A stretch of DNA of 64,000 nt, taken from NCBI GenBank assembly GCA_965204345.1, contig OZ241981.1, forward strand, positions 1,344,001-1,408,000, in the 5' to 3' direction. Both the position numbers and the translations under genes were made by a program. The first letter of the stretch is position 1. The number at the start of each line of letters is the position of its first letter. Shown here piece by piece: positions 4,185 through 63,279 of the stretch. This DNA comes from Nitrosopumilus sp. (GTDB lineage Archaea; Thermoproteota; Nitrososphaeria; Nitrososphaerales; Nitrosopumilaceae). A model generated the notes under the pieces. It worked only from the letters and a program-made list of their open reading frames with translations, searched no databases and was not told the DNA's origin.

Positions 4185-4208
4185 AATATTTTTGTACGAT
4201 AAATTTAA

Positions 4209-6126: not shown

Positions 6127-6201
6127 ATTATGTTGATGATGATGAAATGTAATTCTCTGTTCTTTTTGGTTTTAATTGAAGGGGAGTCCTAAATTTCTAA
6201 A

Positions 6202-7656: not shown

Positions 7657-8162
7657 TTTTTTGCCTAATTAGAAAGGACTTTGTGCATAAATAAGAAATT
7701 TTGGATTTGGCAAAAGAAGAAATGGAGAATACTTGTAAAAAAAATTAATGGTAAAACCTGTGAAACATTTTCCGTTGATTATGAAAAATCTATTCTTGAC
7801 TGTTATCATAAGCAAGAATTGACTTTCAATAACAGATCTAATTGCTAGGATGGATCTTGAAAATTTTGATCAGACTGTTGATCTTGATTGCTCTGCAGGG
7901 GTTTGGCACGGTACAACTCGTAAATACGAAAGATATGACAAAATTGAAGCAATTTCAAATTCAGTGAAAAAATCGGGCTTAAAAGCAGGATTCATTATTC
8001 CTACCCATTGTACTGCTCCACCAAGCCTCACATCCTAAAATGGCTAAATTTTCTTCCAAACCTGCTTTTTTCTATTTGACTTAATCTTAAAAGCTCAAAA
8101 CAATTTCAGCAAATCCAAAGTAATCTACTGTGGAGTTATAAGCGAATAATATTTTTCAAATT

Positions 8163-9128: not shown

Positions 9129-9132
9129 CTGA

Positions 9133-10242
9133 ATGAGAGTATTACATGCAGGTAATATGGTGAATTTGGGATATGTTGTTACTAAGCAATTGAGAAATGA
9201 AAATGTAAATGCTGAATTAGTTATGGAAAAAAATCCTACACAAATGTCTGATCCTTTAATTTTTGATTCACAATTAACCAAATATCCTGACTGGATATAT
9301 TTTCTCAACAAAACTAAATTCTCATGGAAGTTAAATTTGATTAAAAAAATGAGACAAAATTATGACATTATTCATGCTGATGTTGAATTTCCAATCTTTG
9401 CATACCTATCAGGAAAAAAGTTTATTGCACAAACTCAAGGCAGTGATCTTAGAGAACTAGCCTTTTCGAATTCTATAAGGGGCATTTTGCTTAGAAAAGC
9501 ATATCATAAGGCAAAAGCAATTATTTTTTTCCAACCTGATCATTACCCATTATTTTCAAAATTAAATCTCAATAATGAAATTTTTTTACCACCGGCAGGA
9601 TATACCGCATATTACGAACCAACCATTTTTCCTGATGACAAATACACTGATAAATTTTTAATCTTTCATCCCTCTGATCTAAATTGGAGATTAAAGGGAA
9701 ATGACATATTATTAAAGGGATTTGCAGAGTTTCTAAAAAACAACTCTGATTCTTTTATGGTGATAGTTGACAGAGGAGTTGATTCTGATCGAACACATGC
9801 TCTGGTAAGACAACTGCATCTTGAAAATAACGTTGAATTTATCAAGGGTCCATTAAAACCACATGATCTAAAAAGATTTTATAATCTTGCAGATGTTGTA
9901 GCAGATCATTTTGTATACGGTTCTTTAGGATCTATTGGTTGGGAAGTGCTGTCATCACAAAAACCTCTTTTAGGGTTTATTTTTGATGACTTGTATGCAA
10001 AATTGTACGGTGAATCCCCACCAATATTAAACGCAAAAAATTCCAAGCAAATTCAGGAACAATTAGAAACTATCAAAGACACAAAACTACGTCATAAAGT
10101 TGGACAACAAAGCCGTAATTGGATTACAAAGTATCATTCGCCAAAAACTTTCTCAAAGAAACTAATACGACTGTATGATCTTGTTGTTGAAGGAAAAAAA
10201 ATCAATGAAATAAAGCACGAAATAGAAAAAATTCCTTACTGA
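9133..10242 (+). CDS. Glycosyltransferase family 4
   Basis: KGNDILLKGF, YNLADVVAD, WEVLSSQKP. Confidence 0.85.
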   Translation: MRVLHAGNMVNLGYVVTKQLRNENVNAELVMEKNPTQMSDPLIFDSQLTKYPDWIYFLNKTKFSWKLNLIKKMRQNYDIIHADVEFPIFAYLSGKKFIAQTQGSDLRELAFSNSIRGILLRKAYHKAKAIIFFQPDHYPLFSKLNLNNEIFLPPAGYTAYYEPTIFPDDKYTDKFLIFHPSDLNWRLKGNDILLKGFAEFLKNNSDSFMVIVDRGVDSDRTHALVRQLHLENNVEFIKGPLKPHDLKRFYNLADVVADHFVYGSLGSIGWEVLSSQKPLLGFIFDDLYAKLYGESPPILNAKNSKQIQEQLETIKDTKLRHKVGQQSRNWITKYHSPKTFSKKLIRLYDLVVEGKKINEIKHEIEKIPY

Positions 10243-10266
10243 CTGCATAGATAGTTACTTTTACTT

Positions 10267-10941
10267 TTATATTTCAATTTTAATTACAGTATCAAAATTC
10301 CTAATGGGATTTTTTAGATTTCTTCCATTGGCTTGTCTTGTTATTGAAAATTGTTTTTCTGATAATCCTAAATTACCCAATATTTTCCCGAGTTTTTTTG
10401 CCGATAATTCATTGTGATAAAACCCTCCCCTATTGAAATATTCAACCCTGTGTTCTGGGTAATCTGGAAAAAATCCTCTATATGCACTAACTAGGGCATA
10501 TTTTTTTGTATGATTTACAACATTGGTTAGAAAAGCATCAGGATCATACACGTGATCTATCACCGATTGAGTAAAAACCAGATCATATTTTTTCTTTAAA
10601 TCCATTTTTATAAAATCACCTTGAACAAACTCAAAATTTGAGTTTGCTTTACAGTGATCAATTGCAGGCTTGCCGATATCTACTCCTGTGTATTCTTGGA
10701 ATAAATTTTTAAATTTAATCGGAAATATTCCTGCACCACATCCTATTTCAAGAGATGATTTTGGTCTTTTATTGGATAAATAATCTATAATGAATCGGGT
10801 CATTAGGGGTCTATCCTCAACCATCTTGTCATAATGTTTTTCTACATATGTTGGATCTTGCCAAATTTCCCCAAATTGTGTTTTTTTAACTCTAACTTTG
10901 ATACCCTTAGAATAACGTCTTATTTTATCACTGATAGTCAT
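10267..10941 (-). CDS. Class I SAM-dependent methyltransferase
   Basis: LEIGCGAG, YTGVDI, YDLVFTQSVIDH. Confidence 0.85.
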   Translation of the reverse strand: MTISDKIRRYSKGIKVRVKKTQFGEIWQDPTYVEKHYDKMVEDRPLMTRFIIDYLSNKRPKSSLEIGCGAGIFPIKFKNLFQEYTGVDIGKPAIDHCKANSNFEFVQGDFIKMDLKKKYDLVFTQSVIDHVYDPDAFLTNVVNHTKKYALVSAYRGFFPDYPEHRVEYFNRGGFYHNELSAKKLGKILGNLGLSEKQFSITRQANGRNLKNPIRNFDTVIKIEI

Positions 10942-28720: not shown

Positions 28721-31700
28721 TTGAGCAAAAGCCAGACTTTTGCCACATTTGACACAGTTTTACAAAAAATTAGAGATGAATCAAACAGCCCATTTGAACT
28801 TGGTGAGAAATTTGAAAAACTTGTATTTAATTTTCTAACAACTGACAAACTCTATACAAAGAGGTTTGAAAAGGTCTGGACATGGACGGACTGGGCAAAA
28901 GAGAACAAGATCAAAGAGTCATTGGGTACAGGCCATGATCTTGGAATTGATATTGTGGCATTAGAAGATGATGGAAAACTTTGTGCCATACAGTGCAAGT
29001 GCTATCATGATGAGAACATTCTGGAAAAAAAGGATGTTGACAGCTTTGTTGCAGCAAGGGTTGCCTACAATATGGACTACTGCATTTTGGTCAGTACATC
29101 CCCTGTCAATGATAATGCAATGGCCATGCTCATAGGTGCAAAATGTACCATCCTAGATACTGAGCACCTCAGAAACAGCAGCATTGACTGGTCAGAGTAT
29201 CCAAAGATCAAGGCTAGAAAGCCAAAGAAACTGCGAGACTATCAGGAACTGGCAATGGATGATGTGATACAGGGATTCTCAAAAAATTCCAGAGGCAAAA
29301 TGATAATGGCGTGTGGTACCGGCAAAACGTTAGTATCACTACACATAGCAGAAAAACTTGCAGGCAGGGGCGGAACAGTTCTGTATCTGGTACCATCAAT
29401 ATCCCTAATCCTGCAAAGCATGCGTGAATGGTCTGAGAACTCTAACATTCCTCACTATTACATGGCAGTCTGCTCTGATACAAGCATCAGAAATGATGAT
29501 GGTTCCCTAACAGAACTAGAGACTCCCGCATCAACTGACCATCATCTCTTGTCAGAAAGGCTCTCAAAAATATCCAAACAAAAGATGAACGTGGTATTTT
29601 CCACGTATCATTCAATCGATGTGGTCATGGACTCAATGAAAGGATCGTTTGATATCGTACTGTGCGATGAGGCACACCGCACGGCAGGAATCGAAGGCAG
29701 CAGTGGCAAAGAGTCATACCTCACACTGGTACACCACGACACCAACATAAAGGCAAAAAAGAGGCTGTACATGACGGCAACGCCAAGAATATACACAGAG
29801 AATGTAAAAAGCAAGGCAAGGCAAAAAGAAAAGGTGATCATCTCAATGGATGACCAGTCCATATACGGACCTGAATTTCACCATCTGACCTTTTATGATG
29901 CAGTCCACAAGTATGATGCATTATCGGATTTCAAGGTGCGTGTTGCAGTCATGGATGGCGACACCATGGATAAGACAATTCAGGGACTAGTATCAGATGA
30001 TGATAACCAGATTCCGTTAAACGAAAAGACCCTGATGGCCTCAATGTGGCACGCACTGGAATATCCCGGTGCAGGAGATGAGAAAGAGCTGCTCCAAAGG
30101 GTAATTGTATTTTGTGACATGATAAACTCATCCAAACTGTTTGCAGGAGATGAGATAACCTACAAAAAAGATGTGCGGGAAAATTCCGAAGAGTTTGAAA
30201 GGATCAAGGAAATCGATAAGAACCGCTCGTTTGTCAGGCTGGTAAACTATGTCAAAAAAGTCAAGAAGGATTCAGATATCACAAGGCCAGCAGTAAGACA
30301 TGTAGACGGAGGGGATAACGCCCAATACCGAAGAAAGCAGCTTGACTGGTTGCGGGACAGTGAAGATGATCCAAATATCTGTAGAATGTTATCAAACGCC
30401 AGATGTCTGTCTGAAGGTGTTGATGTTCCCGCATTAGATGGTGTGGTGTTTATGAATCCACGAAAATCAGTAGTGGATGTGGTCCAGGCAGTCGGCAGAG
30501 TCATGCGCAAATCACCTGGAAAGGATTATGGATATGTCATACTGCCAGTTGCAATACCTGCCGGAATGAAGATAGAAGACGCACTAGGTGACAGCAAGCA
30601 CTTCAAGGTGGTCTGGCAGGTTCTAAACGCGTTACGCTCTCATGATTCCCGGTTTGCAGATGAGATAAACAAGCTGATACTAGATCCGCCTGATGGCACC
30701 AGTAATGACATTACAAACAGGATAATAATCAGACATGCAGGCAGTCACGGCCTCTCCAGTCTTGAGATGCCCGCAGAAAAGATGATTGAGGGTATTGCCA
30801 CCAAGCTTGTCGAAAAGGTAGGCGATGTTGATTACTATGACACGTATGGAAGAACCATCGGTGAGACAACAAAGGCAGTAGAGACTAGAATAAAAAATAA
30901 ACTGGATGGATCACCACAACTGCAAAATTATTTTAATTCGTTTCACGACGGACTAAAACAGCTAGTCAACGAGAACATTACAAAGGATGAGGCACTACAG
31001 ATAATCGGTCAGCACATTGTAATGTCTCGTGTATTTGATGCAATGTTTTCAGGAGAGTTTACATCACGCAACCCACTATCACAAATACTAGAAAAGATAG
31101 CAGGAAAGTTTGGCTTACAGGAGGAGCTAAAGATACTAGAGCCGTTTTATGAGCAGGTAAGACGAGAGATTCAGGGAATTAAAACCAGAGAAGCAAGACA
31201 GAATTTCATCAAAAAGATATATGGCAACTTTTTTTCCAGTGCCGCAAAAGAGCAATCAGAACAACACGGCATTGTATACACGCCAGTTGAGGTCATTGAT
31301 TTTATCATAAACAGCGTTGAGATTCTGTTAAAGAAACACTTTGGGCTGGGCTTTAATGATCGTTCAGTCAAAGTACTAGAGCCGTTTGCCGGAACCGGGA
31401 CATTTATCACCCGTCTTTTGGAATCAGGCTATATTCATGATAATCTGTACGAGAAATACAAACATGACATCTTTGCAAACGAGATGATATTATTAGCGTA
31501 CTATATCGGAACAGTAAACATAGAGACGACATATTCTAGCCTGCAAAATCACAACAGATATGTTCCCTTTAATGGAATTAACTATACTGATACAATAAAA
31601 CATCCCGCAAGATATAGGGAAGACCCAAGGCACAGACAGGAAACCACCAAGATAAACGAAGACTTTGTAGCAGTACATGCTAGGAATAGATATCAAAACG

Positions 31701-33475
31701 CCTCGCACCTGCATGTTCTGATGGGGAATCCTCCGTATTCGGCAGGACAAGACGATTTTAACAAGGGCACGCCAAACAAGAAATATTCTGACCTTGATCC
31801 AAGAATAAAAGACACGTATATTTCCAGAGTTAAGAAAATCAACCCAACTCTTACCAATACTGTATCACTGTATGATTCCTACATACGCTCAATTCGATGG
31901 GCATCAGATCGGATTGGAAATTCCGGAATTATTGGGTTTATCACCAATGCAAGCTTTATCAGATCTGATGCAACAGCAGGACTGCGTGCATGCCTTGAAG
32001 AAGAGTTTGATGAGGTATGGTGTTTTGATTTGAGAGGCGATGCATATACACAAGGAGAATTGCGTAGAAAAGAAGGTGGTAATGTATTTGGTTCTGGTTC
32101 CAGAACTCCGGTTGCAATCACTATACTGATCAAAAATCCTACAAAGAAAAAATGTGTCATACATTACAAGGACATCGGTGATTATCTCACAAGAGAGCAA
32201 AAACTAGGAAAAATATCTGAACTAAAGTCCATAAACGGAATAAAGGACTGGGAGAAAATTTCTCCAGACAAACATCATGACTGGATTGACCAACGCCCTA
32301 AAGGATTTTCAAAATACACTCCAATTGGAAGCAAAGAAACAAAGTCAGGCGCATATGTAAATGCTATTTTCAGAATATATTCCAGTGGAATTAAAACTCA
32401 TCGTGATGTATGGGCATATAATTCATCTAAAGATGAGCTTGGCAAAAATATGAAAGTACACATTAATTATTGTAATTCGCAAGATCTGAATAAACCAAAA
32501 ATCGATCCAACGCAAGGCAAATGGACAGCAAGCTTAAGTGACAAATTAAAACAAAATAAGACAAAACCCAAATTCGATGACAATAAAATTAGAACTGCAT
32601 CCTATAGACCGTTCTTCAAACAGAATCTATATTTTGATAATGTTTTTGTCGAGATGACCTACCAAATACCAAAATTCTTTCCAGAAAATTCCTCAAAAAA
32701 CTTGGTAATCTGCATACCCGATAAAGGCAAACTTGGAATGTTTTCTGTTATTGTAACAGATGTGACTCCTGATCTTCACATAATCGAACAATCTCAATGT
32801 TTCCCACTATACGTATACGAAAACAACAAGGACAAAAAACTCAACATTACAGACTTTGCGTTAAAAGAATACCAGCAACACTATAACGACTCAAAAATCA
32901 CAAAAAAATCAATCTTTTATTACGTCTATGGCATATTGCACCATACACAGTACAAGAAAAAATTTGCAAACAACCTTACACGGGAACTGCCACACATTCC
33001 AATGGCTCCAGACTTTTGGAAGTTTAGCAAGGCAGGAGAAAGACTGGCAGACCTGCATCTAAACTATGAGACCTGCAAGAGATATTCCCTGGGCAAGCCC
33101 AAATCCAAATTTGGCAACCTGGAAAAGATGGCGTATCCAAAGATGAAAAAAGATGATAAACAGATAGCAGACAAGACAAAACTTAGGATAAATGGAGTTA
33201 TAACATATGAGAACATTCCATCTGTCAAATATCAGATTAATGGCAGAACACCACTAGAGTGGCTAATAGACAGATACCGTTTTACAACAGACAAGGATTC
33301 TGGAATTACAAACAATCCAACAAAAGATATGACCGAACAAAAGACCATAGAGATGATTGAGAGAATTCTATACATCAGCACAGAATCAGATAAGATAATT
33401 GCAGAGTTCTCAAGACTGCCATTTGAGCCAAAAGACTGGGAGCCCAAAAAGACTGGCCTTGATGCGTATGGATAG
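28721..33475 (+). CDS. Type ISP restriction-modification enzyme (Mrr-like nuclease, SF2 helicase, N6-MTase, TRD; LlaGI/LlaBIII-like)
   Basis: GIDIVA...AIQCK; MACGTGKT; DEAH; QAVGRVMR; EPFAGTG; GNPPY; C-terminal TRD. Confidence 0.93.
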   Translation: MSKSQTFATFDTVLQKIRDESNSPFELGEKFEKLVFNFLTTDKLYTKRFEKVWTWTDWAKENKIKESLGTGHDLGIDIVALEDDGKLCAIQCKCYHDENILEKKDVDSFVAARVAYNMDYCILVSTSPVNDNAMAMLIGAKCTILDTEHLRNSSIDWSEYPKIKARKPKKLRDYQELAMDDVIQGFSKNSRGKMIMACGTGKTLVSLHIAEKLAGRGGTVLYLVPSISLILQSMREWSENSNIPHYYMAVCSDTSIRNDDGSLTELETPASTDHHLLSERLSKISKQKMNVVFSTYHSIDVVMDSMKGSFDIVLCDEAHRTAGIEGSSGKESYLTLVHHDTNIKAKKRLYMTATPRIYTENVKSKARQKEKVIISMDDQSIYGPEFHHLTFYDAVHKYDALSDFKVRVAVMDGDTMDKTIQGLVSDDDNQIPLNEKTLMASMWHALEYPGAGDEKELLQRVIVFCDMINSSKLFAGDEITYKKDVRENSEEFERIKEIDKNRSFVRLVNYVKKVKKDSDITRPAVRHVDGGDNAQYRRKQLDWLRDSEDDPNICRMLSNARCLSEGVDVPALDGVVFMNPRKSVVDVVQAVGRVMRKSPGKDYGYVILPVAIPAGMKIEDALGDSKHFKVVWQVLNALRSHDSRFADEINKLILDPPDGTSNDITNRIIIRHAGSHGLSSLEMPAEKMIEGIATKLVEKVGDVDYYDTYGRTIGETTKAVETRIKNKLDGSPQLQNYFNSFHDGLKQLVNENITKDEALQIIGQHIVMSRVFDAMFSGEFTSRNPLSQILEKIAGKFGLQEELKILEPFYEQVRREIQGIKTREARQNFIKKIYGNFFSSAAKEQSEQHGIVYTPVEVIDFIINSVEILLKKHFGLGFNDRSVKVLEPFAGTGTFITRLLESGYIHDNLYEKYKHDIFANEMILLAYYIGTVNIETTYSSLQNHNRYVPFNGINYTDTIKHPARYREDPRHRQETTKINEDFVAVHARNRYQNASHLHVLMGNPPYSAGQDDFNKGTPNKKYSDLDPRIKDTYISRVKKINPTLTNTVSLYDSYIRSIRWASDRIGNSGIIGFITNASFIRSDATAGLRACLEEEFDEVWCFDLRGDAYTQGELRRKEGGNVFGSGSRTPVAITILIKNPTKKKCVIHYKDIGDYLTREQKLGKISELKSINGIKDWEKISPDKHHDWIDQRPKGFSKYTPIGSKETKSGAYVNAIFRIYSSGIKTHRDVWAYNSSKDELGKNMKVHINYCNSQDLNKPKIDPTQGKWTASLSDKLKQNKTKPKFDDNKIRTASYRPFFKQNLYFDNVFVEMTYQIPKFFPENSSKNLVICIPDKGKLGMFSVIVTDVTPDLHIIEQSQCFPLYVYENNKDKKLNITDFALKEYQQHYNDSKITKKSIFYYVYGILHHTQYKKKFANNLTRELPHIPMAPDFWKFSKAGERLADLHLNYETCKRYSLGKPKSKFGNLEKMAYPKMKKDDKQIADKTKLRINGVITYENIPSVKYQINGRTPLEWLIDRYRFTTDKDSGITNNPTKDMTEQKTIEMIERILYISTESDKIIAEFSRLPFEPKDWEPKKTGLDAYG

Positions 33476-41619: not shown

Positions 41620-42198
41620 ATGAATATTGAAAATATTACAAAGGAAGACATGGTATTGGCCTTAATCAAAAGGGCAACAGAGTATACTGGAACTAAAAAC
41701 AACAAAGGCGTACATGGAAAGAAAGCTCTTCAGAAAAGCCTCTATTTCCTAAATGATAAATTTCATCTATTTGGATTTAGATGGGGTGATTATGGCCCAT
41801 TAAGCGGTGAAATTCAGCAAATTGCTGAAGATCTTATTACTAGAGGTGATATTACAGTCACAAAAATCCCTACCAAAAAAGATGGTATCTTTACTCAACA
41901 CATGAAATATTCTATGAAAGATGATTCTTACTTTGAAGAGTTGGATATGCCAAAAGATTTGGATTCTGAATTAGATGAAATTGTCAAATTTACTGCGGGT
42001 AAAAGTCCTAGAGATTTAGAACTCCTTGCATCTGTTCATTTTTGGGCTATGCGACAACAAGATCTGTTAGATGAATATTCTATGAATTATGTTTTAGAAA
42101 AATTAACTGAGCTAAAACCTGATGCTGGCTTCAAACAGTCTGATGTTGAATATGCTATTGAAACTCTTGTAACCCATGAATATTTACCAAAAAACTAG
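41620..42198 (+). CDS. YwgA/SocA (Panacea)-like antitoxin-domain protein
   Basis: GKKALQKSLYFL...F.WGDYGPLSGEI...DLELLASVHF. Confidence 0.6.
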   Translation: MNIENITKEDMVLALIKRATEYTGTKNNKGVHGKKALQKSLYFLNDKFHLFGFRWGDYGPLSGEIQQIAEDLITRGDITVTKIPTKKDGIFTQHMKYSMKDDSYFEELDMPKDLDSELDEIVKFTAGKSPRDLELLASVHFWAMRQQDLLDEYSMNYVLEKLTELKPDAGFKQSDVEYAIETLVTHEYLPKN

Positions 42199-42398
42199 TT
42201 TTTATGATATTTTTCTAATTATGAATTGATCTCTGTTGGGTTTAATTTAATATCTGTTCATAATCAACAGATCTACAAATTTTTTTATTTTAACCAAAGG
42301 TCAGCCTGTGATTAATTAGGATCAATTGATCTCACTAAATTGTTAACAGAATTGATCGATACGATACTTGAGGATAGGGGAATAATAGTTACGTTACA

Positions 42399-45415: not shown

Positions 45416-45639
45416 CTGTATTCTTCTATTCTAGGTAGTTTGATGTCTAAATAGATATTGCAAGTTGTAACTTTTCTTGTTTGGTCTAATTTTTTCATTC
45501 CACCACTAACCACAATAGGATCCTCAAGTATCGAATCAATTAATTCTCTTAATAATTCGATGCGAGCAATTGATCCTAACACCATACCGTGTACAATACA
45601 GTTAACACCGTTCCAATAAATATTGGAGCGGAATTTCAC
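45412..45639 (-). CDS. Small hypothetical protein
   Basis: Stop overlaps next start (ATGA). Confidence 0.45.
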   Translation of the reverse strand: MKFRSNIYWNGVNCIVHGMVLGSIARIELLRELIDSILEDPIVVSGGMKKLDQTRKVTTCNIYLDIKLPRIEEYR

Positions 45640-50059: not shown

Positions 50060-51478
50060 ATGCCCCTTGCATCTAGAGCAATTTCACGTGATTCAGTCAA
50101 AACCTTCATCATGTATGTTCTAAGCAAAAGGGGAACAACAATATCAGTAATCGAGGAGAAAAAAAACAGGAAATATGATGGAGATGCATCACAAAAGAAA
50201 TATCAAGACAAGCATGTATGGATCACTAGAAATGATCTAATAGAATCTGTTGCAAAATTACTAAAGATCAATAAAAATTTGTGGGGTCCAAACCGAAACT
50301 CAAACAAGTTTCACAACATAGTCGATCAAGAGATTGGAAAACTGAGGCGCAAAAAGGAGATAGTAGACTGGAGCAGTACCAAACAGCTCGGAATATTCAG
50401 GCTCGAAGAAAATACTTCTGGTTTAGATGAATTACCAAATATGACTTTAGAAGATCCATCGCCTCAAAAAAATAATCATGATCCCTACACTGATACATCT
50501 GAGCAAAATCTCAAAAAAATATTCATATCCATAATTTCTGAATCCTCAAAATCCAACACCTATAAATTCACCCTTGCCAAGTCCCTCTTGGATTACTGTA
50601 AAGAAACTGATGAAAATAAGCCAACATACGAAATACCATACACATACTTTGCAAGTAAATTTTTAAAATATTATTGGTATCAGGAATACAAATTCAGAAT
50701 GAAACAAGATTATCTTAGTAAAGGAAAACCAAATGTCATCCAACAGATTAACAGTGTCTTTGGGGATAATCCTCCCGGAGATTTTAGCCTGCTTGAGAAA
50801 AACGACATAGATGCTGCAGAGCAAAAAATACTCAAAGCCGTGTTTGGTAGCATTCGGTCAAAAAAATCGATTGTTATTCCTGCATTTCAAAACATTTCAG
50901 TTGGACAAGGTGCAGAAGAGCGCAAGGTATTTTATGACTATGACAACAAAAGTAAAAAGCTATATCTTCGGAAAGAGGCATTTGATTTTTTCAAAAAAAA
51001 TAACAGCATACTATCAAAAGCAGTTCTTGCAGAGTGGGCAAAATTCCTAGAAAAGATCAATCATTCACTACCACGACTAGTTGCAAAGATCGATCAGTAC
51101 GATCTAAAGCGGGGTTCGCTAAATACGGTTCGAAACATGTATCTAAAACATACAGATCACTGCTTTTACTGTGCAAGTAAACTAGAAGATGATTACATTG
51201 AAGTAGATCATTTTATTCCATGGTCATACATATTTGATGATGCTGTATGGAACTTGGTCCTGTCCTGCAAAGACTGCAACCGCAAAAAAAGCAATTCACT
51301 TGCAGAGGAAGAGTTTCATCAGGCACTAATTAAAAGAAATTCAAGGCACTATGAAAAAATAAGAGAACTGCAAATCTCCCTGGATCAACTAAACACAGGC
51401 AAAGGCTGGAAACCGGTGATCAAAAATCACTATGTGACTTGCAAGGACTATGGATTTGCAATGATACGAATGCCTTAA
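50060..51478 (+). CDS. HNH endonuclease with Mrr-N-like winged helix
   Basis: NTYKFTLAKSLL; CFYC...EVDHFIPWS...WNLVLSCKDCNRKKS. Confidence 0.85.
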   Translation: MPLASRAISRDSVKTFIMYVLSKRGTTISVIEEKKNRKYDGDASQKKYQDKHVWITRNDLIESVAKLLKINKNLWGPNRNSNKFHNIVDQEIGKLRRKKEIVDWSSTKQLGIFRLEENTSGLDELPNMTLEDPSPQKNNHDPYTDTSEQNLKKIFISIISESSKSNTYKFTLAKSLLDYCKETDENKPTYEIPYTYFASKFLKYYWYQEYKFRMKQDYLSKGKPNVIQQINSVFGDNPPGDFSLLEKNDIDAAEQKILKAVFGSIRSKKSIVIPAFQNISVGQGAEERKVFYDYDNKSKKLYLRKEAFDFFKKNNSILSKAVLAEWAKFLEKINHSLPRLVAKIDQYDLKRGSLNTVRNMYLKHTDHCFYCASKLEDDYIEVDHFIPWSYIFDDAVWNLVLSCKDCNRKKSNSLAEEEFHQALIKRNSRHYEKIRELQISLDQLNTGKGWKPVIKNHYVTCKDYGFAMIRMP

Positions 51479-54022: not shown

Positions 54023-54055
54023 AAATTCTTCTGTATTGGCAGCGCGTACTGCTGT

Positions 54056-56749
54056 CTATGTTTTCACTTTGAATAAGGCAGCTTCACCTTCTCTAATGAC
54101 TAATTGCAATTGAGGATTATCCTCAAAGAGGGCTATTCGTTCAGAAGTACTTATGTGAAGAGCTGGAAATACTGGTAGAAGATGCTGTCGTGCCGCTTGT
54201 TGTCTGTTTTGGGGATCACCGCCAGTAATTAACACATATTCAATACCATACTTGTCCAATATTTCCATCATTTTCATGTCTCCGGGATGGTGTAATACAA
54301 GGTTAGCCTCATATGCTCTCTCTTTTAGAAATGTATCATCTGGCACAACATTGGTGCTTATTCTTTTCCACATTTCTCTGTTATTAGTTATATCAAATAT
54401 CTTTATTGATGAAAGCCACATTCCTTCAGTAGTTCTATCCTCAAGGATGGTTGTATTTGAATCAAGATTGTCATTCATCCAACCCATAACTTTTAATTCA
54501 TTGCTTGTAGGTAAATATCCTAGCAAACCATCTTTATACTCGTATGAAATATGAGTATCAAGACTTGGAATTAGTGCAATAAAAACCAACGAGCAAATCA
54601 CTATGGACAAGACTGATTTTGAACGTAATGAAATTTCGCGTTTGTTAAACCTAGTTGCAAGTTTATCAAAAATATCAACCCCTGCTAAAATTATTCCTAT
54701 TTGAGAGATGATAGCTCCTAGTAAAACAAGTCTGTCAGGATACATAAACCAGAAAAGATTCTCATAAATTACTTTATTTGATATTGTTCCAAACACTAGG
54801 GAAAACATTACAATCAAAAATAAACTAAACTCTCGATTGGATTTAAACAACCAAGTTGCAGAAAGAACCCCCCCTAGTAATAAAATAAAATAAGGAAAAT
54901 ATATAGAATCTATGTTGTATATGTCCATCTCCTCTAGAAAGATCCACCAAAAGTCGACCCTAGCACCATGTTCCTGAATCAATTCATCTGCAAAATAAAC
55001 CAGTGATGCGCCTGATGTTACTACCAAAATAATTAACGCCAATCGTAAAGAAGTAAGCATATAGTTTTTTATCTTAAATTTCCCGACTCGCAGTCCATTT
55101 GTTTTGGAGTTTATGGGGGATTTTAAGAGTATTAATTTAATAATTATAAACAAAACAAAGGGAACGATCATGATAGTATATGTGATAAATATTACAACTG
55201 ACAATAGCGAATAAATAATAAAATTAGAATTATTTTTATTATTAATAACTATGCTGATAAAAAGCAAAAGTATGCAAGTAAATGTAGCAAATACAAAAGT
55301 GCCCCCTTCTAATGGAGTAAGTAGTACATCATCAAATAGTATAAAATAACCTACTTCATTTCCTGGAATAAAAAACAATGCTCCAAATGCAATGCTTGCC
55401 AAGTAATACGATTTGGTTTTTTTGTATATTATTGAAAAACAGATGGGCGGCAAGAGTGCAACAATTGTTGCTGTGACGGCATATTGGGATATTGGCAGCA
55501 TGACGTTTGTAATCAAAGAAAAAAATGCAGTCAAAGCATGAAATCCCTGAGGATAAACTGTCATTCCATATGGCAAATCAAAAAATGGCCAATTATTGTT
55601 AAACACACTCGTATGATACATTATAAATTGCGAAGCGTGACCATGGTATTGCGGATCATGAATCGGCGGCCAGCTCATATTTTCTGCAATTATAAAAAAG
55701 TGAGTCAGTGACAGAATTATGAGTATGCCTGCAATCAGATTTGGAAGAACTTTTTCATTTTTAATTTCAGACAGAATTTTAGCTCTGTCTCTGAAAATCA
55801 AGTAAGAGCCAACCATCATAAACGAAAAGAAGGCTGTCAGAACAGTAGTCTGTGTAAAGTGAAGCATTGCCAGAAAAATCGCCAAAAGAATCAGCAATAC
55901 CAAGCCAAAGGCAGAGTACAGGGAAAAATTAATTACAAATCCAAAATTCAGCTTGTATCGGATAATTTTTAATAGAAAATACCCCATAATAACTGAAGAC
56001 GACAAATAAACAATCATGGATGTCAGTATCTCGTTTTTAAAATTCGACCTGTCTGAACCTATTTTGCTGTCAAATAATCCAGGCACTACCTCTGCATTTG
56101 CAATGTTCAGGCGCTGTGCTAGCTGTGCGTGATATTCTACATCAAATAATCCAGGCACTACCTCTGCATCTGTAATGAGCGTGGTCTGGGAATAAGAGTC
56201 CCCTCCGTTTACAAATGTAATTCTAAGAGACTTGACATTGCCAGGATCAAAGCCAGGTTTATTTTGAACGTAATTGGAGGGATCTACAATAACTTTTGCC
56301 CAAGTGCCATCTTCTAAACCAAACCACTGTGGCAAATTCCAAAAAGGACGCTGTATATCATTTGCATCAACCATGATCAAAAATGCATTAGCCCTCCATG
56401 CTTCAGGAGTACTTTTATTTATTCCAGCCACATTTTCAAGATTCATCCAAAATCGTAATCCTTGGCCCGTAGACAGATCCACAGGCTTGGAAAAACGGCA
56501 CTCAAGAACTGCTGTTTCTGTGGCATCACTGCTGGAAAAATAACTATAGGTAAAATCGCTATCATCATCATCATCATCACTATTCATATTCAGAGATTTG
56601 TCCAAAAAACTAGACTCTGAATCCCACGTACATTTATTCTCACTGTCAGACTCGAAAACATAAAAATCATGAAGATTTTCGGCAAATACAATTGATGGCA
56701 ACGCACATAATACCAACAAAACAAGTGCTATCCCACTAACAAGAAACAA
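54056..56749 (-). CDS. GT-C fold (STT3/AglB- or DUF6541-like) membrane glycosyltransferase, allele A
   Basis: Signal peptide, extracellular domain, many TMs, HDPQYH, YPQGFH, WMNDNL...LDKYGIEYVL. Confidence 0.7.
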   Translation of the reverse strand: MFLVSGIALVLLVLCALPSIVFAENLHDFYVFESDSENKCTWDSESSFLDKSLNMNSDDDDDDSDFTYSYFSSSDATETAVLECRFSKPVDLSTGQGLRFWMNLENVAGINKSTPEAWRANAFLIMVDANDIQRPFWNLPQWFGLEDGTWAKVIVDPSNYVQNKPGFDPGNVKSLRITFVNGGDSYSQTTLITDAEVVPGLFDVEYHAQLAQRLNIANAEVVPGLFDSKIGSDRSNFKNEILTSMIVYLSSSVIMGYFLLKIIRYKLNFGFVINFSLYSAFGLVLLILLAIFLAMLHFTQTTVLTAFFSFMMVGSYLIFRDRAKILSEIKNEKVLPNLIAGILIILSLTHFFIIAENMSWPPIHDPQYHGHASQFIMYHTSVFNNNWPFFDLPYGMTVYPQGFHALTAFFSLITNVMLPISQYAVTATIVALLPPICFSIIYKKTKSYYLASIAFGALFFIPGNEVGYFILFDDVLLTPLEGGTFVFATFTCILLLFISIVINNKNNSNFIIYSLLSVVIFITYTIMIVPFVLFIIIKLILLKSPINSKTNGLRVGKFKIKNYMLTSLRLALIILVVTSGASLVYFADELIQEHGARVDFWWIFLEEMDIYNIDSIYFPYFILLLGGVLSATWLFKSNREFSLFLIVMFSLVFGTISNKVIYENLFWFMYPDRLVLLGAIISQIGIILAGVDIFDKLATRFNKREISLRSKSVLSIVICSLVFIALIPSLDTHISYEYKDGLLGYLPTSNELKVMGWMNDNLDSNTTILEDRTTEGMWLSSIKIFDITNNREMWKRISTNVVPDDTFLKERAYEANLVLHHPGDMKMMEILDKYGIEYVLITGGDPQNRQQAARQHLLPVFPALHISTSERIALFEDNPQLQLVIREGEAALFKVKT
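56070..56177. repeat. Repeat-spacer-repeat unit inside allele A (36-bp repeat, 36-bp insert, in frame)
   Basis: 28 bp exact (56070-56097, 56142-56169) extending to 36 bp with 2 mismatches; absent from allele B. Confidence 0.9.
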
Positions 56750-56799
56750 CAGATTCTAAAATTTTCTTGTTTATTTACTTTTTTGTTATGAGGTTCTGT

Positions 56800-57843
56800 T
56801 CTATTGTACGAAAATTATGTCCGCCTAAGCTCAGGCTTCAGACAAGGGATTATTACCGCATATACCGATCACGAATAATGAAGAGAACCAGACTAAAAGG
56901 AGATCAGACCAGATACATCATACGGCAGCATCAAAAGGGCACAGCTGCAGCAGTCTGGCCCAGACCATGCAGGTCAGCGCAAGACACGTCAGACGCATAT
57001 GGGCAGCCTACCGCAAGACCGGAAGAATACTCCCCCACAGAAAGGCAGAAAGACCCAGAAAGATACCATCACCTGAGGATGTACGTCGTGTTCTTAAGAC
57101 ATATGATGATATTCATGCAGTAGTGCGCACGACTCGCCACCTCAGAAAGTCATCTCATATAAGCTACCATACGGTATACCAAATAATGAAATCCAACGGA
57201 CTGGCCAGACTGTCTCCTGAAAAATCCAAGAAGAGGAAATACGTCAGATACGAGCGACTGTATTCCAATGCAATGTGGCATGTGGACTGGCCAAAATGAA
57301 GGATCCACGCCTGAAAGGACTGCAACTTGTGGCATATCTGGATGATGCATCAAGATGCATAACGGGATTCGAGATATTTGAGTGCCACAAGCCAGAACAC
57401 TGTAGCCGTTTTGCGCAAGGCTATCAAGTCATTTGGCACGCCAGGCCAGATACTTTCAGACAATGGAGCCTAGTTCACATCCCGGAACCGCGGTGTACCT
57501 GCCAAGGGATGGAAGCCCACCAACCCTGTTTGAGTCAGAAGCCCTGGAGAGGTGTATTGTCCTGATTGACTCGCGCTCTCACCACCACCACCCGCAGACC
57601 AACGGCAAGATTGAAAGATTCTTCAAGACACTTGAGGATGAGATTGTACACTTTAAGACGATGGAGGAGTTCATCGACTTTTACAATGAGGATAGGCTGC
57701 ATTTTTCTCTGGACATAGAGAACTGCCAGATGCTCCTGATGGCATTTAAGGCCAAAAAGGTTCCTGATGCGATCAGGAAAAACAACCAAAAATGGATGGA
57801 GGCAGATATGAATGACTAGCGGACATAATTATCATATAATACA
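56800..57843 (+). mobile_element. IS481-family element copy 1, frameshifted transposase
   Basis: 25-bp imperfect TIRs (T.TATT.TA.GA.AATTATGTCCGC); WHVDW, YLDDASR, PQTNGKIERFFKTL motifs. Confidence 0.9.
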
Positions 57844-58058
57844 GCCTTCCTCCTCCTCCTCTTTATCTTTATCATCATCGTCTTTATCATGCCTACCTCT
57901 TGAGTCTCGCGTAAAAACTATCACCTTGTGTTTCTCTGCGAGTCTGCCATCTGCTTTTTTTCCAATAATGCAGTCTGCCCTTGTTCCGATTATTTTTCCA
58001 TCTCTGGGAGTCTGCCAGCTAATTCTTTTCCAATAAAGCTGGTGCTGCCCCCAATTAT
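57844..58058 (-). pseudogene. Remnant resembling a duplicated NAD-dependent epimerase N-terminus plus low-complexity tail
   Basis: IIGGSTSFIGKELAGRL and IIGKKADGRLAEKHKVIVFTRD. Confidence 0.4.
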
Positions 58059-59102
58059 TGTATTATATGATAATTATGTCCGCTAGTCATTCATATCTGC
58101 CTCCATCCATTTTTGGTTGTTTTTCCTGATCGCATCAGGAACCTTTTTGGCCTTAAATGCCATCAGGAGCATCTGGCAGTTCTCTATGTCCAGAGAAAAA
58201 TGCAGCCTATCCTCATTGTAAAAGTCGATGAACTCCTCCATCGTCTTAAAGTGTACAATCTCATCCTCAAGTGTCTTGAAGAATCTTTCAATCTTGCCGT
58301 TGGTCTGCGGGTGGTGGTGGTGAGAGCGCGAGTCAATCAGGACAATACACCTCTCCAGGGCTTCTGACTCAAACAGGGTTGGTGGGCTTCCATCCCTTGG
58401 CAGGTACACCGCGGTTCCGGGATGTGAACTAGGCTCCATTGTCTGAAAGTATCTGGCCTGGCGTGCCAAATGACTTGATAGCCTTGCGCAAAACGGCTAC
58501 AGTGTTCTGGCTTGTGGCACTCAAATATCTCGAATCCCGTTATGCATCTTGATGCATCATCCAGATATGCCACAAGTTGCAGTCCTTTCAGGCGTGGATC
58601 CTTCATTTTGGCCAGTCCACATGCCACATTGCATTGGAATACAGTCGCTCGTATCTGACGTATTTCCTCTTCTTGGATTTTTCAGGAGACAGTCTGGCCA
58701 GTCCGTTGGATTTCATTATTTGGTATACCGTATGGTAGCTTATATGAGATGACTTTCTGAGGTGGCGAGTCGTGCGCACTACTGCATGAATATCATCATA
58801 TGTCTTAAGAACACGACGTACATCCTCAGGTGATGGTATCTTTCTGGGTCTTTCTGCCTTTCTGTGGGGGAGTATTCTTCCGGTCTTGCGGTAGGCTGCC
58901 CATATGCGTCTGACGTGTCTTGCGCTGACCTGCATGGTCTGGGCCAGACTGCTGCAGCTGTGCCCTTTTGATGCTGCCGTATGATGTATCTGGTCTGATC
59001 TCCTTTTAGTCTGGTTCTCTTCATTATTCGTGATCGGTATATGCGGTAATAATCCCTTGTCTGAAGCCTGAGCTTAGGCGGACATAATTTTCGTACAATA
59101 GA
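58059..59102 (-). mobile_element. IS481-family element copy 2 (reverse complement of copy 1)
   Basis: Identical ORF translations; same TIRs. Confidence 0.9.
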
Positions 59103-59152
59103 ACAGAACCTCATAACAAAAAAGTAAATAAACAAGAAAATTTTAGAATCTG

Positions 59153-61771
59153 TTGTTTCTTGTTAGTGGGATAGCACTTGTTTTGTTGGTATTATGTGCG
59201 TTGCCATCAATTGTATTTGCCGAAAATCTTCATGATTTTTATGTTTTCGAGTCTGACAGTGAGAATAAATGTACGTGGGATTCAGAGTCTAGTTTTTTGG
59301 ACAAATCTCTGAATATGAATAGTGATGATGATGATGATGATAGCGATTTTACCTATAGTTATTTTTCCAGCAGTGATGCCACAGAAACAGCAGTTCTTGA
59401 GTGCCGTTTTTCCAAGCCTGTGGATCTGTCTACGGGCCAAGGATTACGATTTTGGATGAATCTTGAAAATGTGGCTGGAATAAATAAAAGTACTCCTGAA
59501 GCATGGAGGGCTAATGCATTTTTGATCATGGTTGATGCAAATGATATACAGCGTCTTTTTTGGAATTTGCCACAGTGGTTTGGTTTAGAAGATGGCACTT
59601 GGGCAAAAGTTATTGTAGATCCCTCCAATTACGTTCAAAATAAACCTGGCTTTGATCCTGGCAATGTCAAGTCTCTTAGAATTATATTTGTAAACGGAGG
59701 GGACTCTTATTCCCAGACCACGCTCATTACAGATGCAGAGGTAGTGCCTGAATTATTTGACAGCAAAATAGGTTCAGACAGGTCGAATTTTAAAAACGAG
59801 ATACTGACATCCATGATTGTTTATTTGTCGTCTTCAGTTATTATGGGGTATTTTCTATTAAAAATTATCCGATACAAGCTGAATTTTGGATTTGTAATTA
59901 ATTTTTCCCTGTACTCTGCCTTTGGCTTGGTATTGCTGATTCTTTTGGCGATTTTTCTGGCAATGCTTCACTTTACACAGACTACTGTTCTGACAGCCTT
60001 CTTTTCGTTTATGATGGTTGGCTCTTACTTGATTTTCAGAGACAGAGCTAAAATTCTGTCTGAAATTAAAAATGAAAAAGTTCTTCCAAATCTGATTGCA
60101 GGCATACTCATAATTCTGTCACTGACTCACTTTTTTATAATTGCAGAAAATATGAGCTGGCCGCCTGTTTTTGATCCGCAATACCATGGTCACGCTTCGC
60201 AATTTATAATGTATCATACGAGTGTGTTTAACAATAATTGGCCATTTTTTGATTTGCCATATGGAATGACAGTTTATCCTCAGGGATTTCATGCTTTGAC
60301 TGCATTTTTTTCTTTGATTACAAACGTCATGCTGCCAATATCCCAATATGCCGTCACAGCAACAATTGTTGCACTCTTGCCGCCCATCTGTTTTTCAATA
60401 ATATACAAAAAAACCAAATCGTATTACTTGGCAAGCATTGCATTTGGAGCATTGTTTTTTATTCCAGGAAATGAAGTAGGTTATTTTGTAATTTCTCATG
60501 ATGTACTACTTACTCCATTATCTACAGGAACTTTTGTATTTGCTACATTTACTTGCATACTTTTGCTTTTTATCAGCATAGTTATTAATAATAAAAATAA
60601 TTCTAATTTTATTATTTATTCGCTATTGTCAGTTGTAATATTTATCACATATACTATCATGATCGTTCCCTTTGTTTTGTTTATAATTATTAAATTAATA
60701 CTCTTAAAATCCCCCATAAACTCCAAAACAAATGGACTGCGAGTCGGGAAATTTAAGATAAAAAACTATATGCTTATTTTACGATTGGCGTTAATTATTT
60801 TGGTAGTAACATCAGGCGCATCACTGGTTTATTTTGCAGATGAATTGCAGAAGATAAATAATATTCCGATCACCACTTACTGGCTATTATTTGAGAATAT
60901 GGACATATACAACATAGATTCTATATATTTTCCTTATTTTATTTTATTACTAGGGGGGGTTCTTTCTGCAACTTGGTTGTTTAAATCCAATCGAGAGTTT
61001 AGTTTATTTTTGATTGTAATGTTTTCCCTAGTGTTTGGAACAATATCAAATAAAGTAATTTATGAGAATCTTTTCTGGTTTATGTATCCTGACAGACTTG
61101 TTTTACTAGGAGCTATCATCTCTCAAATAGGAATAATTTTAGCAGGGGTTGATATTTTTGATAAACTTGCAACTAGGTTTAACAAACGCGAAATTTCATT
61201 ACGTTCAAAATCAGTCTTGTCCATAGCGATTTGCTCGTTGGTTTTTATTGCACTAACTCCAAGTCTTGATACTCATATTTCATACGAGTATGACGATGAT
61301 TTGCTAGGATATTTACCTACAAGCAATGAATTAAAAGTTATGGGTTGGATGAATGACAATCTTGATTCAAATACAACCATCCTTCAGGATAGAACTGGTG
61401 AAGGAATGTGGCTTTCATCAATAAAGATATTTGATATAACTAATAACAGAGAAATGTGGAGAAGAATACACAGTAGTGTTGTGTTAGATGATACATTTCT
61501 AAAAGAGAGAGCATATGAGGCTAACCTTGTATTACACCATCCCGGAGACATGAAAATGATGGAAATATTGGACAAGTATGGTATTGAATATGTGTTGATT
61601 ACTGGCGGTAATCCGAAAGACAGACAACGATCGGATGCGTACCCGCTTCTACCAGTATTTCCAGCTCTTCACATAAGTACTTCTGAACGAATAGCCCTCT
61701 TTGAGGATAATCCTCAATTGCAATTAGTCATTAGAGAAGGTGAAGCTGCCTTATTCAAAGTGAAAACATAG
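59153..61771 (+). CDS. GT-C fold membrane glycosyltransferase, allele B
   Basis: Paralogue of 54056-56749 with patchwise differences. Confidence 0.7.
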   Translation: MFLVSGIALVLLVLCALPSIVFAENLHDFYVFESDSENKCTWDSESSFLDKSLNMNSDDDDDDSDFTYSYFSSSDATETAVLECRFSKPVDLSTGQGLRFWMNLENVAGINKSTPEAWRANAFLIMVDANDIQRLFWNLPQWFGLEDGTWAKVIVDPSNYVQNKPGFDPGNVKSLRIIFVNGGDSYSQTTLITDAEVVPELFDSKIGSDRSNFKNEILTSMIVYLSSSVIMGYFLLKIIRYKLNFGFVINFSLYSAFGLVLLILLAIFLAMLHFTQTTVLTAFFSFMMVGSYLIFRDRAKILSEIKNEKVLPNLIAGILIILSLTHFFIIAENMSWPPVFDPQYHGHASQFIMYHTSVFNNNWPFFDLPYGMTVYPQGFHALTAFFSLITNVMLPISQYAVTATIVALLPPICFSIIYKKTKSYYLASIAFGALFFIPGNEVGYFVISHDVLLTPLSTGTFVFATFTCILLLFISIVINNKNNSNFIIYSLLSVVIFITYTIMIVPFVLFIIIKLILLKSPINSKTNGLRVGKFKIKNYMLILRLALIILVVTSGASLVYFADELQKINNIPITTYWLLFENMDIYNIDSIYFPYFILLLGGVLSATWLFKSNREFSLFLIVMFSLVFGTISNKVIYENLFWFMYPDRLVLLGAIISQIGIILAGVDIFDKLATRFNKREISLRSKSVLSIAICSLVFIALTPSLDTHISYEYDDDLLGYLPTSNELKVMGWMNDNLDSNTTILQDRTGEGMWLSSIKIFDITNNREMWRRIHSSVVLDDTFLKERAYEANLVLHHPGDMKMMEILDKYGIEYVLITGGNPKDRQRSDAYPLLPVFPALHISTSERIALFEDNPQLQLVIREGEAALFKVKT

Positions 61772-61855
61772 ACACAGCAGTAAATGAAATGTAATGTATG
61801 ATGCGTGGTCAAAATGCTCTGAAAGATTTATTCAGTGAAAACATAGACAGCAGTA
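61751..61855. repeat. Degenerate duplication of gene 3' end around a ~37-45 bp insert
   Basis: TTATTCA(AA)GTGAAAACATAGAC(AC)AGCAGTA at 61751-61782 and 61828-61855; single copy in left arm. Confidence 0.8.
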
Positions 61856-62120
61856 CGCGCTGCCAATAATGTATTATATGAAAATCATATCCGCTAGTCA
61901 TTCATGTCTGCCTCCATCCATTTTTGGTTGCTTTTTCTGATCGCATCAGGAACCTTTTTGGCCTTAAATGCCATCAGAGGCACCTGGCAGTTCTCTATGT
62001 CCAGAGAAAAATGCAGTCTATCCTTATTGTAAAAATCGATGAACTCCCCCATCGTCTTAAAGTGTACAATCTCATCCTCAAGTGTCCTGAAGAATCTCTC
62101 AATCTTGCCGTTGGCCTGCG

Positions 62121-62317
62121 GGTGGTGGTGGTGGTGGTGGTGGTGGTGGTGGTGGTGGTGGTGGTGGTGGTGGTGGTGGTGGTGGTGGTGGTGGTGGTGG
62201 TGGTGGTGGTGGTGGTGGTGGTGGTGGTGGTGGTGGTGGTGGTGGTGGTGGTGGTGGTGGTGGTGGTGGTGGTGGTGGTGGTGGTGGTGGTGGTGGTGGT
62301 GGTGGTGGTGGTGGTGG
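62121..62317. repeat. (GGT)~65 trinucleotide tract
   Basis: Perfect tract; only 4 units at the homologous site in IS copies 1 and 2. Confidence 0.95.
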
Positions 62318-62774
62318 GAGCGTGAGTCAATCAGGGCAATACTCCTCTCCAGAGCTTCTTCCTCAAACATGGTGAGCCTCTATCCCTTGGCAGGTATACC
62401 GCGGTTTCGGGATGTGAACTGGGCGCCGTTGTCTGAAAGTATCTGGCCTGGCGTGCCAAATGACTTGATAGTCTTGCGCAAAACGGCTACAGTGTTCTGG
62501 CTTGTGGCACTATCAAATATCCCGAATCCCGTTATGCATCTTGATGCATCATCCAGATATGCCACAAGTTGCAATCCTTTTAGGCGTGGATCCTTCATTT
62601 TGGCCAGTCCATATCCCACATTGCATTGGAATACAGTCACTCGTATCTGACGTACTTTCTCTTCTTGGATTTTTCAGGAGACAGCTTAACTAGTCCATTG
62701 GATTTCATTATTTGGTAATGCTGTATGGTATCTTATATGAGATGACTTTCTGAGGTGGCGAGCTGTGTGCACTA

Positions 62775-62884
62775 CTGCATGAATATCATCATATGTCTTA
62801 AGAACACGACGTTTAAGTGGTGACGGCATCGTCTAGGGCTTCGAGCCTGCATGAATATCATCATATGTCTTAAGAACACGACGT
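62775..62884. repeat. Repeat-spacer-repeat unit inside IS copy 3 (38-bp exact repeat, 34-bp insert)
   Basis: CTGCATGAATATCATCATATGTCTTAAGAACACGACGT at 62775-62812 and 62847-62884. Confidence 0.95.
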
Positions 62885-63279
62885 ACATCCTCAGGTGATG
62901 GTATCTTTCTGGGTCTTTCTGCCTTTCTGTGGGGGAGTATTCTTCCGGTCTTGCGGTAGGCTGCCCATATGCGTCTGACGTGTCTTGCGCTGACCTGCAT
63001 GGTCTGGGCCAGAACAGATGCTGCACCTGTGCCCTTTTGATGCTGCCGTATGATGTATCTAATCTGAACTTCTTTTAGTCTGGTTCTCTTCATTATTCGT
63101 GATCTGTATATGCGGTAATAATCCCTTGCCTGAAGCCTGAGCTTAGGCGGACATAATTTTCGTACAATAGATTTGCGAAACCAGATGAAAGACTAAAAAC
63201 GTTAAAACTGGATGATGATGATCCTGCTCATGCAAGAGATGTTAATTAATATGAAGTATTTTCAGCAGTACTAACACAC

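Follow-up and report, generated by a model that had tools for sequence, protein, structure and literature searches.

As far as geometry goes, the closest known system to the locus described here appears to be the sap (S-layer) locus of Campylobacter fetus. There, a family of full-length homologues has conserved 5' and variable 3' parts, copies in opposite orientation bracket a segment that can be inverted by homologous recombination with no site-specific invertase, and one promoter on this invertible segment decides which copy is expressed. The R64 shufflon, in which rearrangement gives alternative C-terminal parts of a surface-related protein, requires the Rci recombinase and several short sfx sites. 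The human Y-chromosome palindromes combine kilobase inverted arms, a short unique spacer, gene pairs and near-identity kept by conversion, and the tuf genes are found in inverted orientation. Here we describe a large inverted repeat at positions 54034 to 61868 of a 64,000-nucleotide stretch of Nitrosopumilus sp. DNA (contig OZ241981.1 of assembly GCA_965204345.1, forward-strand positions 1,344,001 to 1,408,000; this whole stretch is called the window, and all coordinates are its own). The repeat holds two divergent genes for membrane proteins of the Pfam family DUF6541, geneA and geneB, around a convergent pair of insertion sequences (ISs) of the IS481 family.

In sequence design, the closest known systems seem to be vlsE, tprK and pilE. 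VlsE is described as having six variable and six invariant regions and TprK as having variable regions V1-V7, while VlsE, TprK and PilE are each built from one expression site plus promoterless partial cassettes, according to the relevant section of PMC4534519. Duplicates of the tufA/tufB type illustrate how paralogues are kept near-identical by gene conversion, and the seven archaeal cases of concerted evolution in the excerpted text of PMC6053082 all concern methanogens and metabolic or histone genes, with no surface or glycan genes among them. Our search of open-access full text for archaeal gene conversion, multigene families and hypervariable glycosyltransferases of Thaumarchaeota brought up nothing equivalent, and no open-access full-text paper on DUF6541 was found.

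The Nitrosopumilus locus shares with sap a family of full-length homologues with conserved 5' and variable 3' parts, and opposite copies around a segment that homologous recombination could invert. It differs from sap in that each copy has its own identical upstream region of 50 bp and the centre consists of two dead ISs and 215 bp; moreover, the host is an archaeon, the product resembles a membrane enzyme and is no S-layer protein, and the locus is known from sequence alone. With VlsE, TprK and PilE it has in common short variable regions interleaved with invariant sequence, and mosaic products from short tracts, but here every copy seen is full length and no silent partial cassettes were found. 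Whereas the tuf genes are homogenised over their whole length under purifying selection, hypervariable patches are spared in the genes described here. Apart from scale and organism, the locus differs from the Y-chromosome palindromes in having family members outside the palindrome and hypervariable islands inside its arms. On balance, and with considerable reservation, we favour the reading that geneA and geneB belong to a lineage-specific multigene family that evolves by gene conversion around hypervariable surface patches, and that the palindrome is an IS-bounded inverted pair of its members.

The anatomy of the repeat is as follows.

54034..57843, unstranded: left arm, consisting of hairpin, geneA, 50-bp upstream region and IS_L
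58059..61868, unstranded: right arm, the inverted copy of the left arm
57844..58058, unstranded: spacer, unique, 215 bp, with an internal 36-nt direct repeat (57933-57968 / 58001-58036)
54056..56749, minus strand: geneA, 897 codons, DUF6541 (E 9.9e-15)
59153..61771, plus strand: geneB, 872 codons, DUF6541 (E 3.1e-14), identical to database protein P0003
56750..56799, unstranded: gene-upstream region between IS end and start codon, 50 bp, with a mirror copy at 59103-59152
54038..54056, unstranded: terminator-like stem-loop just past the stop codon, with a mirror copy at 61846-61864
56800..57843, plus strand: IS_L, IS481-family element of 1044 bp, terminal inverted repeats matching at 21/25 positions, transposase frame broken
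58059..59102, minus strand: IS_R, identical to IS_L
56070..56141, minus strand: segment of 72 nt (24 codons) with a 28-nt flanking direct repeat, present in geneA and P0001 and lacking in geneB, P0002 and P0004
61775..61833, unstranded: insertion of 59 nt in the geneB 3' flank, with a 16-nt direct repeat at its borders

Read from the centre outward, each arm is thus one unit made of an IS481-family element, 50 bp, a DUF6541 gene and a terminator-like hairpin; geneA and geneB diverge outward and IS_L and IS_R face each other. The repeat search scored the core block (56142-57843 / 58059-59760; 1702 nt, 215 nt apart) at 100%, with further blocks outward of 1055 nt at 98%, 754 nt at 96%, and 129 nt and 70 nt both at 100%. 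In the gapped arm alignment, 1497 nt (56347-57843) are without any difference from the partner arm, and in the 200 nt beyond this identical centre the arms differ only by single mismatches at 56151, 56217 and 56346. The remaining differences, apart from the 72-nt segment, lie in a few dense clusters. At the far end, the outermost 33 nt (54036-54068) match 61834-61866 exactly, reached across the 59-nt insertion in the right arm, and the limits 54034 and 61868 are therefore right. An inverted repeat of such length and identity is no chance match, and apart from internal matches between the IS copies the long arms are the sole repeats in the 50-64 kb region. The preliminary description of this stretch had given arms of about 3.8 kb, the 215-bp spacer and an identical, convergent IS481 pair, and the repeat search and arm alignment agree with it on all of these points, the two ISs matching over 1044 nt without a difference.

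The two indels between the arms (56070-56169 and 61759-61849) have the same form, with the extra sequence lying inside a direct repeat (28 nt and 16 nt, respectively), which fits deletion by slippage in the shorter copy. The 50-bp upstream region carries an A/T-rich box 21-28 nt ahead of the start codon and may act as a compact promoter. An Rfam scan of 56700-59200 gave no non-coding RNA match at E<=1. We also considered whether the spacer is a gene remnant and rejected this, as its open minus-strand frame is of a common kind (1502/5000 shuffles) and has no Pfam match at E<=1.

Part of the evidence for our reading is the way in which the two genes differ. At the protein level, 819/897 aligned positions are common to both, and when the genes are compared codon by codon, 51 of the 872 aligned codons differ, 47 of them nonsynonymously and 4 synonymously. 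These differences are far from evenly spread, since the adjacency clustering of differing codons was matched in 0/10000 permutations. Eight patches, amounting to 105 codons, hold all 4 synonymous differences and have a proportion of synonymous differences (pS) of 0.18, a proportion of nonsynonymous differences (pN) of 0.26 and a ratio of the two (omega) of 1.5. Outside the patches, by contrast, 767 codons contain 0 synonymous and 3 nonsynonymous differences. The patches are thus islands of old or imported divergence in a very recently homogenised backbone. The differences between the genes had earlier been placed in their distal parts. The five-prime part is indeed conserved, yet there is no smooth rise with distance, only eight dense patches between identical stretches. 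Patches and variable positions are listed below in the codon numbering of geneA.

54182..54230, minus strand: hypervariable patch, codons 840-856, with five alleles in five family sequences
54342..54366, minus strand: variable patch, codons 795-803, from arm alignment and family comparison
54429..54600, minus strand: scattered variable codons 717-774, whose affinities to family members alternate
54929..54979, minus strand: hypervariable patch, codons 591-607, in a predicted outside loop, with five alleles in five sequences
55301..55342, minus strand: variable patch, codons 470-483, around the conserved D474
55659..55664, minus strand: variable codons 362-364, adjoining the invariant D365

Further copies exist outside the window, which itself carries only two. 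When 5.8 billion proteins were searched from word seeds, just four clusters came up, comprising 11 member sequences (3+2+5+1); every cluster has one contig on record, and for all four of them the longest has 2,038,535 bases. The family proteins have about 870-900 residues, and five full-length sequences that differ from one another could be compared (geneA, geneB, P0001, P0002 and P0004, with geneB counting as P0003), and the true number of paralogues is between 5 and 11. What had been described as two alleles is therefore better seen as two members of a set of five or more distinct paralogues. Searched exhaustively without a profile, 1.84 billion representatives gave 100 relatives at E<=1e-3, the best of them outside the family being 32% identical. 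There was no short relative (30-492 aa) among 8000 candidates scored, and tblastn of the gene against plasmid and phage collections gave no match. With no relative above 32% identity beyond the family, none of them short and none on plasmids or phages, a lineage-specific expansion is indicated. Scanning genome contigs with geneA likewise found no relative, while a scan with a 7-sequence alignment found one related locus, L001, in a Bathyarchaeota metagenome-assembled genome.

Across the five sequences, 88/897 columns vary, and each of the two main loops (codons 591-607 and 845-856) is present in five alleles. There are 14 two-state informative sites, of which 8, spread from codon 39 to codon 796, group geneA with geneB; the two arms are each other's closest relatives. 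The family history as a whole is mosaic: in a four-gamete test on the five protein sequences, 48/91 site pairs carry all four combinations. For example, the affinities of geneA at codons 741, 770 and 774 alternate between P0002 and P0001/P0004, so the exchange tracts must have been very short, or the same positions have changed repeatedly. Such alternation is better explained by gene conversion from donors that lie outside the palindrome than by arm-to-arm crossover. At most patches geneA has private alleles, which are found neither in geneB nor elsewhere in the window, and geneB has three private single changes. A search of the window for a donor of any patch found none. P0001, P0002 and P0004 show no mutual difference in their first 200 residues, and the conserved 5' half is therefore a family trait and not a gradient from the centre of the palindrome.

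Silent cassettes were considered as a source of the variation and rejected for this locus, as the copies in the window are full length and neither short relatives nor a donor in the window were found. A diversity-generating retroelement was set aside as well, because there is no reverse transcriptase in the 49 open reading frames (ORFs) scanned, the changes are not adenine-specific (patch substitutions involve all four bases), and there are several patches rather than one 3' region.

How could such a pattern arise? In the mechanism that we propose, an IS-associated rearrangement would have placed two complete units head to head. Homologous gene conversion, acting from arm to arm and throughout the family, would then keep the copies identical even at silent sites, and divergence would survive, or return in short tracts, only in about eight patches. 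The exchange would be carried out by the general recombination machinery of the host. This would probably yield enzymes or surface proteins that are built on one scaffold and differ in their exposed or substrate-facing loops. The diversity in the patches may be selected, for glycan specificity or as a virus-exposed surface, or merely tolerated. Recombination between the arms would also flip the centre, and nothing indicates that this is the purpose of the arrangement; both genes have their own upstream region, and a flip therefore need not alter expression.

The proposed origin of the pair draws on the ISs, including a third copy next to the right arm.

61870..63171, minus strand: IS3, third copy, in the same orientation as IS_R, transposase also broken

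IS3 begins one base past the end of the right arm, and geneB is consequently flanked by two IS copies in direct repeat. On the inner side, and on the outer side at the right, the limits of the arms are also those of an IS, which suggests that the pair arose by an IS-associated rearrangement. The assignment to IS481 follows from several features. One IS end starts with TGT, and 1044 bp lies within the ~1-1.3 kb of the family; ORF fragments of IS_L match the NF033577 profile at positions 23-136 (E 3.2e-14) and 220-276 (E 1.3e-8), those of IS3 match it at positions 5-71, 148-203 and 213-276, and one match among the fragments is to Pfam rve_3 (2.1e-7). The fragments follow in order along the IS481 profile and along an intact relative of 314 residues, intact relatives of the transposase being 311-316 aa long and 54-57% identical. 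Each fragment stays under the 224-bit cut-off of the profile because the gene is in pieces, and given frameshifts and stops in all three transposase frames the IS copies are relics. Their GC content of 0.47-0.49, compared with 0.35 in the genes and 0.352 in the window, suggests that the genes are native and the ISs foreign.

IS3 is ~94% identical to the arm copies, with 60 substitutions in 1040 ungapped columns, a 183-nt insertion and a 72-nt duplication. The insertion is due to a perfect trinucleotide run (62121-62317; 65.7 units, 197 nt), where IS_L and IS_R have only ~4 units; in the transposase frame, this run amounts to ~65 histidines directly ahead of the conserved HPQ(T/A)NGK motif. Despite a divergence of 5.8%, IS_R and IS3 have one identical run of 173 nt in common, a length reached in 10/10000 permutations, and this may be a further sign of local conversion. 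A fourth copy lies outside the window (P0104; 88% identical, 247-residue ORF), on the same 2.04-Mb contig as the gene family. Its flank at the transposase-start end is unlike that of the gene-linked copies, so the element was once mobile independently of the family.

IS481 elements are known from archaea, as stated in the relevant passage of PMC13343696. A bacterial experiment, in the part of PMC11708052 that deals with it, found an IS481-family element at the junction of a duplication, with no duplication of the target site, as at the boundary of our arms; in that case 60 kb were duplicated in direct orientation and a single new, active IS separates the copies, whereas here the duplication is inverted, spans 3.8 kb and has dead ISs inside the arms. 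At 57933-58058 and 61856-61869, the same end of IS_R and of IS3 adjoins GCTGCC, a few bases, AAT and A/T, and both 36-nt repeats of the spacer end in CCAATAA. By analogy with an IS481 element that, according to the same part of PMC11708052, targets repetitive extragenic palindromic (REP) sequences, this may be a preferred insertion motif.

The placement of the patches on the protein depends on its predicted topology. Hydropathy and the positive-inside rule give geneA 14 hydrophobic segments, with a core of ~13 spans if 508-548 is counted as two. The N-terminus is signal-like and is followed by an acidic domain predicted to lie outside (22-244, ~220 residues); K/R-free loops at 356-422, 472-483 and 587-615 and a C-terminal domain (731-897, ~165 residues) are also predicted outside. 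On this model, the main patches would fall in outside parts, and two of them directly adjoin D365 and D474. D365 is invariant in 43/43 aligned relatives and H369 nearly so, both in the large predicted outside loop. Across the wider family, the variability of the main loops exceeds the average (entropy 3.0-3.4 versus 2.54).

A multi-span core, a large outside loop and an outside C-terminal domain are, as far as so crude a prediction goes, the layout of GT-C enzymes. These enzymes also conserve an acidic residue in an outside loop, for which D365 is a candidate. DUF6541 is the only Pfam family recognised, in 9/43 aligned members. The membrane core may have a GT-C-like fold, judging by Atlas models of distant homologues. 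The model of P0008, which is 29% identical over residues 244-897, aligns with an RgtA/B/C/D-like glycosyltransferase cluster at TM-scores of 0.72/0.73 and has further neighbours in DUF6541 and in DUF2298 (0.71-0.72); the model of P0015 aligns with a PMT_2 cluster at 0.46/0.66. We take the PMT_2 and Rgt enzymes to be GT-C. The genes had been labelled GT-C from the outset, and what supports this label is limited to these fold leads from homologues. As to function, the locus has a flippase-like Polysacc_synt gene on its left side and a gene for a heptose-kinase-like GHMP kinase on its right, and in the Bathyarchaeota locus L001 the homologue closes a row of genes, all on one strand, for GT2, GT2, epimerase, GT4, GT4 and methyltransferase. 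These neighbours suggest a glycan role for DUF6541 genes.

Several points weigh against our reading. The locus is known from one assembled sequence and in a single configuration. The count of 11 member sequences is cluster bookkeeping, in which one gene may appear more than once because its start was predicted differently. No donor tract was seen directly, the other members having been compared as proteins, and in five protein sequences the mosaicism could partly be repeated substitution at hot sites. The patch omega of 1.5 is not significantly greater than 1 (Fisher p 0.27); diversifying selection is therefore not shown, and relaxed constraint is just as good a fit. The topology was predicted by a crude hydropathy rule and requires two spans within 508-548. 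Neither a profile search of the PDB (best E 0.2, unrelated proteins) nor hhalign against E. coli ArnT (probability 0.14) gave a sequence link to a characterised GT-C enzyme. Finally, a target-site duplication was looked for at all three IS copies and none was found, and the ends of the three copies do not combine into one simple history.

An alternative is that the palindrome is itself a shuffling machine that works without a recombinase, in which reciprocal crossovers between the arms would make chimeric genes at a useful frequency and thereby vary the surface. This is the idea of the preliminary description, in which crossover inverts the centre and swaps gene portions in a shufflon-like manner, and we consider it unlikely. 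Long inverted arms, a short spacer and 1497 identical central bases would suit such a device, as would the resemblance to the sap locus in geometry; crossovers between patches at eight separate places would give new combinations, and the family is mosaic. No dedicated recombinase had been expected, and indeed tyrosine and serine recombinase families were not found among the 49 ORFs scanned and the IS transposases are broken. The comparison with a shufflon itself does not hold, since it would call for an Rci-type recombinase, absent from the same ORFs, and for short crossover sites, of which there are none in 50-64 kb; a shufflon or invertase switch was rejected on these grounds. Crossover between the arms is possible in principle, but the data fit short conversion tracts and outside donors better. 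A crossover between two arms re-sorts the alleles of two genes only, yet geneA is private at most patches, and other members match either arm in alternating single codons, which calls for short tracts and donors from elsewhere. Nor does the conserved 5' half reveal any effect of the centre, being a trait of the family; flipping the spacer need not change expression when both genes keep identical upstream regions of their own; and the palindrome holds only 2 of at least 5 copies.

We regard it as improbable that the pair is simply a recent, passive inverted duplication mediated by the ISs, in which one gene was copied a single time together with its upstream IS and the copies have yet to diverge, with patches later overwritten by a few chance conversions and with no ongoing role. 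The 0 synonymous differences in 767 codons, the identical IS copies, the arm limits at IS ends with IS3 abutting the right arm, and the three private single changes of geneB, which resemble fresh mutations, are all as such an event would leave them, and IS481-family elements occur at duplication junctions without target-site duplications, at least in the case treated in that portion of PMC11708052. However, eight patches with a pS of 0.18 would need many independent short conversions in a very short time, the same positions vary in every member examined, which argues for a sustained process or selection, and both frames, of 872 and 897 codons, remain open. If the pair were merely a recent duplication, it would be an ordinary IS-associated rearrangement.

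Least probable of all, and in our view very unlikely, is an assembly artefact in which two strain haplotypes or two dispersed paralogues were mis-joined through the IS and 5' gene stretches in which they are identical. Identical repeats of 1.5-1.7 kb and a near-identical 2.6-kb gene family are hard to assemble, and perfect central identity could reflect collapsed or over-polished repeats, but the spacer occurs only once, patches and indels set the arms apart, each arm holds a complete open gene, both outer junctions run on into ordinary genes, a fold-back read would yield perfect arms without a spacer, and the presence of the same proteins on a single 2.04-Mb contig suggests a closed assembly.

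Elsewhere in the window, a second glycan-modification cluster lies at 1-10300, with a lower GC of 0.27-0.32; it encodes GT4 enzymes, an FkbM methyltransferase, a methyltransferase-sulfotransferase fusion and several ORFs without a family. An AAA_14/DUF4143 ATPase at 14878-16404 matches the candidate defence family PDC-S01, and 28721-33475 encodes a single restriction-modification enzyme of the Type ISP / IIG kind, with 1584 residues and Mrr-type nuclease, helicase, methylase and Type_ISP_C domains. At 41620-42198 there is a 192-residue protein like the C-terminal part of DarG (PADLOC E 1.8e-9). Close by, a 60-nt inverted repeat (42316-42375 / 45520-45579; 83% complementary) brackets 3.1 kb with two convergent ORFs of 478 and 339 residues, in which no Pfam, PADLOC or PHROG family was recognised apart from a weak winged-helix match. 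Between a HAD hydrolase gene and the flippase-like gene, at 50060-51478, lies a gene for a protein of 472 residues in which nothing is recognisable except an HNH domain of the Cas9/IscB/PtuB kind (residues 355-435); it scores far under the IscB and Cas9 cut-offs. The window also encodes haem-copper oxidase and plastocyanin-type proteins.

What would a conversion-driven DUF6541 family mean for its host? A bolder version of our reading, which we put forward only tentatively and hold to be possible rather than probable, is that the genome maintains some ten gene copies for a GT-C-like surface-glycan enzyme, all full length and each open to expression by itself, which act as mutual donors of short tracts, with IS-bounded inverted pairs serving as recombination hot spots. 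If so, these genes would have variable regions in the style of VlsE and TprK without silent cassettes, with combinatorial diversity in outside loops beside conserved residues of catalytic type, and they would serve to vary the surface glycans or a protein exposed to viruses.

For bacterial pathogens, programmed or semi-programmed variation of the surface is well documented, for archaea hardly so, and one review, in the passage that bears on this point, urges that surveys of surface variation be extended to archaea (PMC11868660). The more interesting finding at this locus is not the palindrome as a device but the family-wide identical backbones with hypervariable patches predicted to lie outside. 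Because the variable loops adjoin an invariant Asp and His, DUF6541 would gain its first functional handle. The combination of silent-site identity with eight diverged patches, predicted outside, would make the family a clear test case for conversion-driven diversification beyond the host-pathogen setting, presumably under pressure from viruses.

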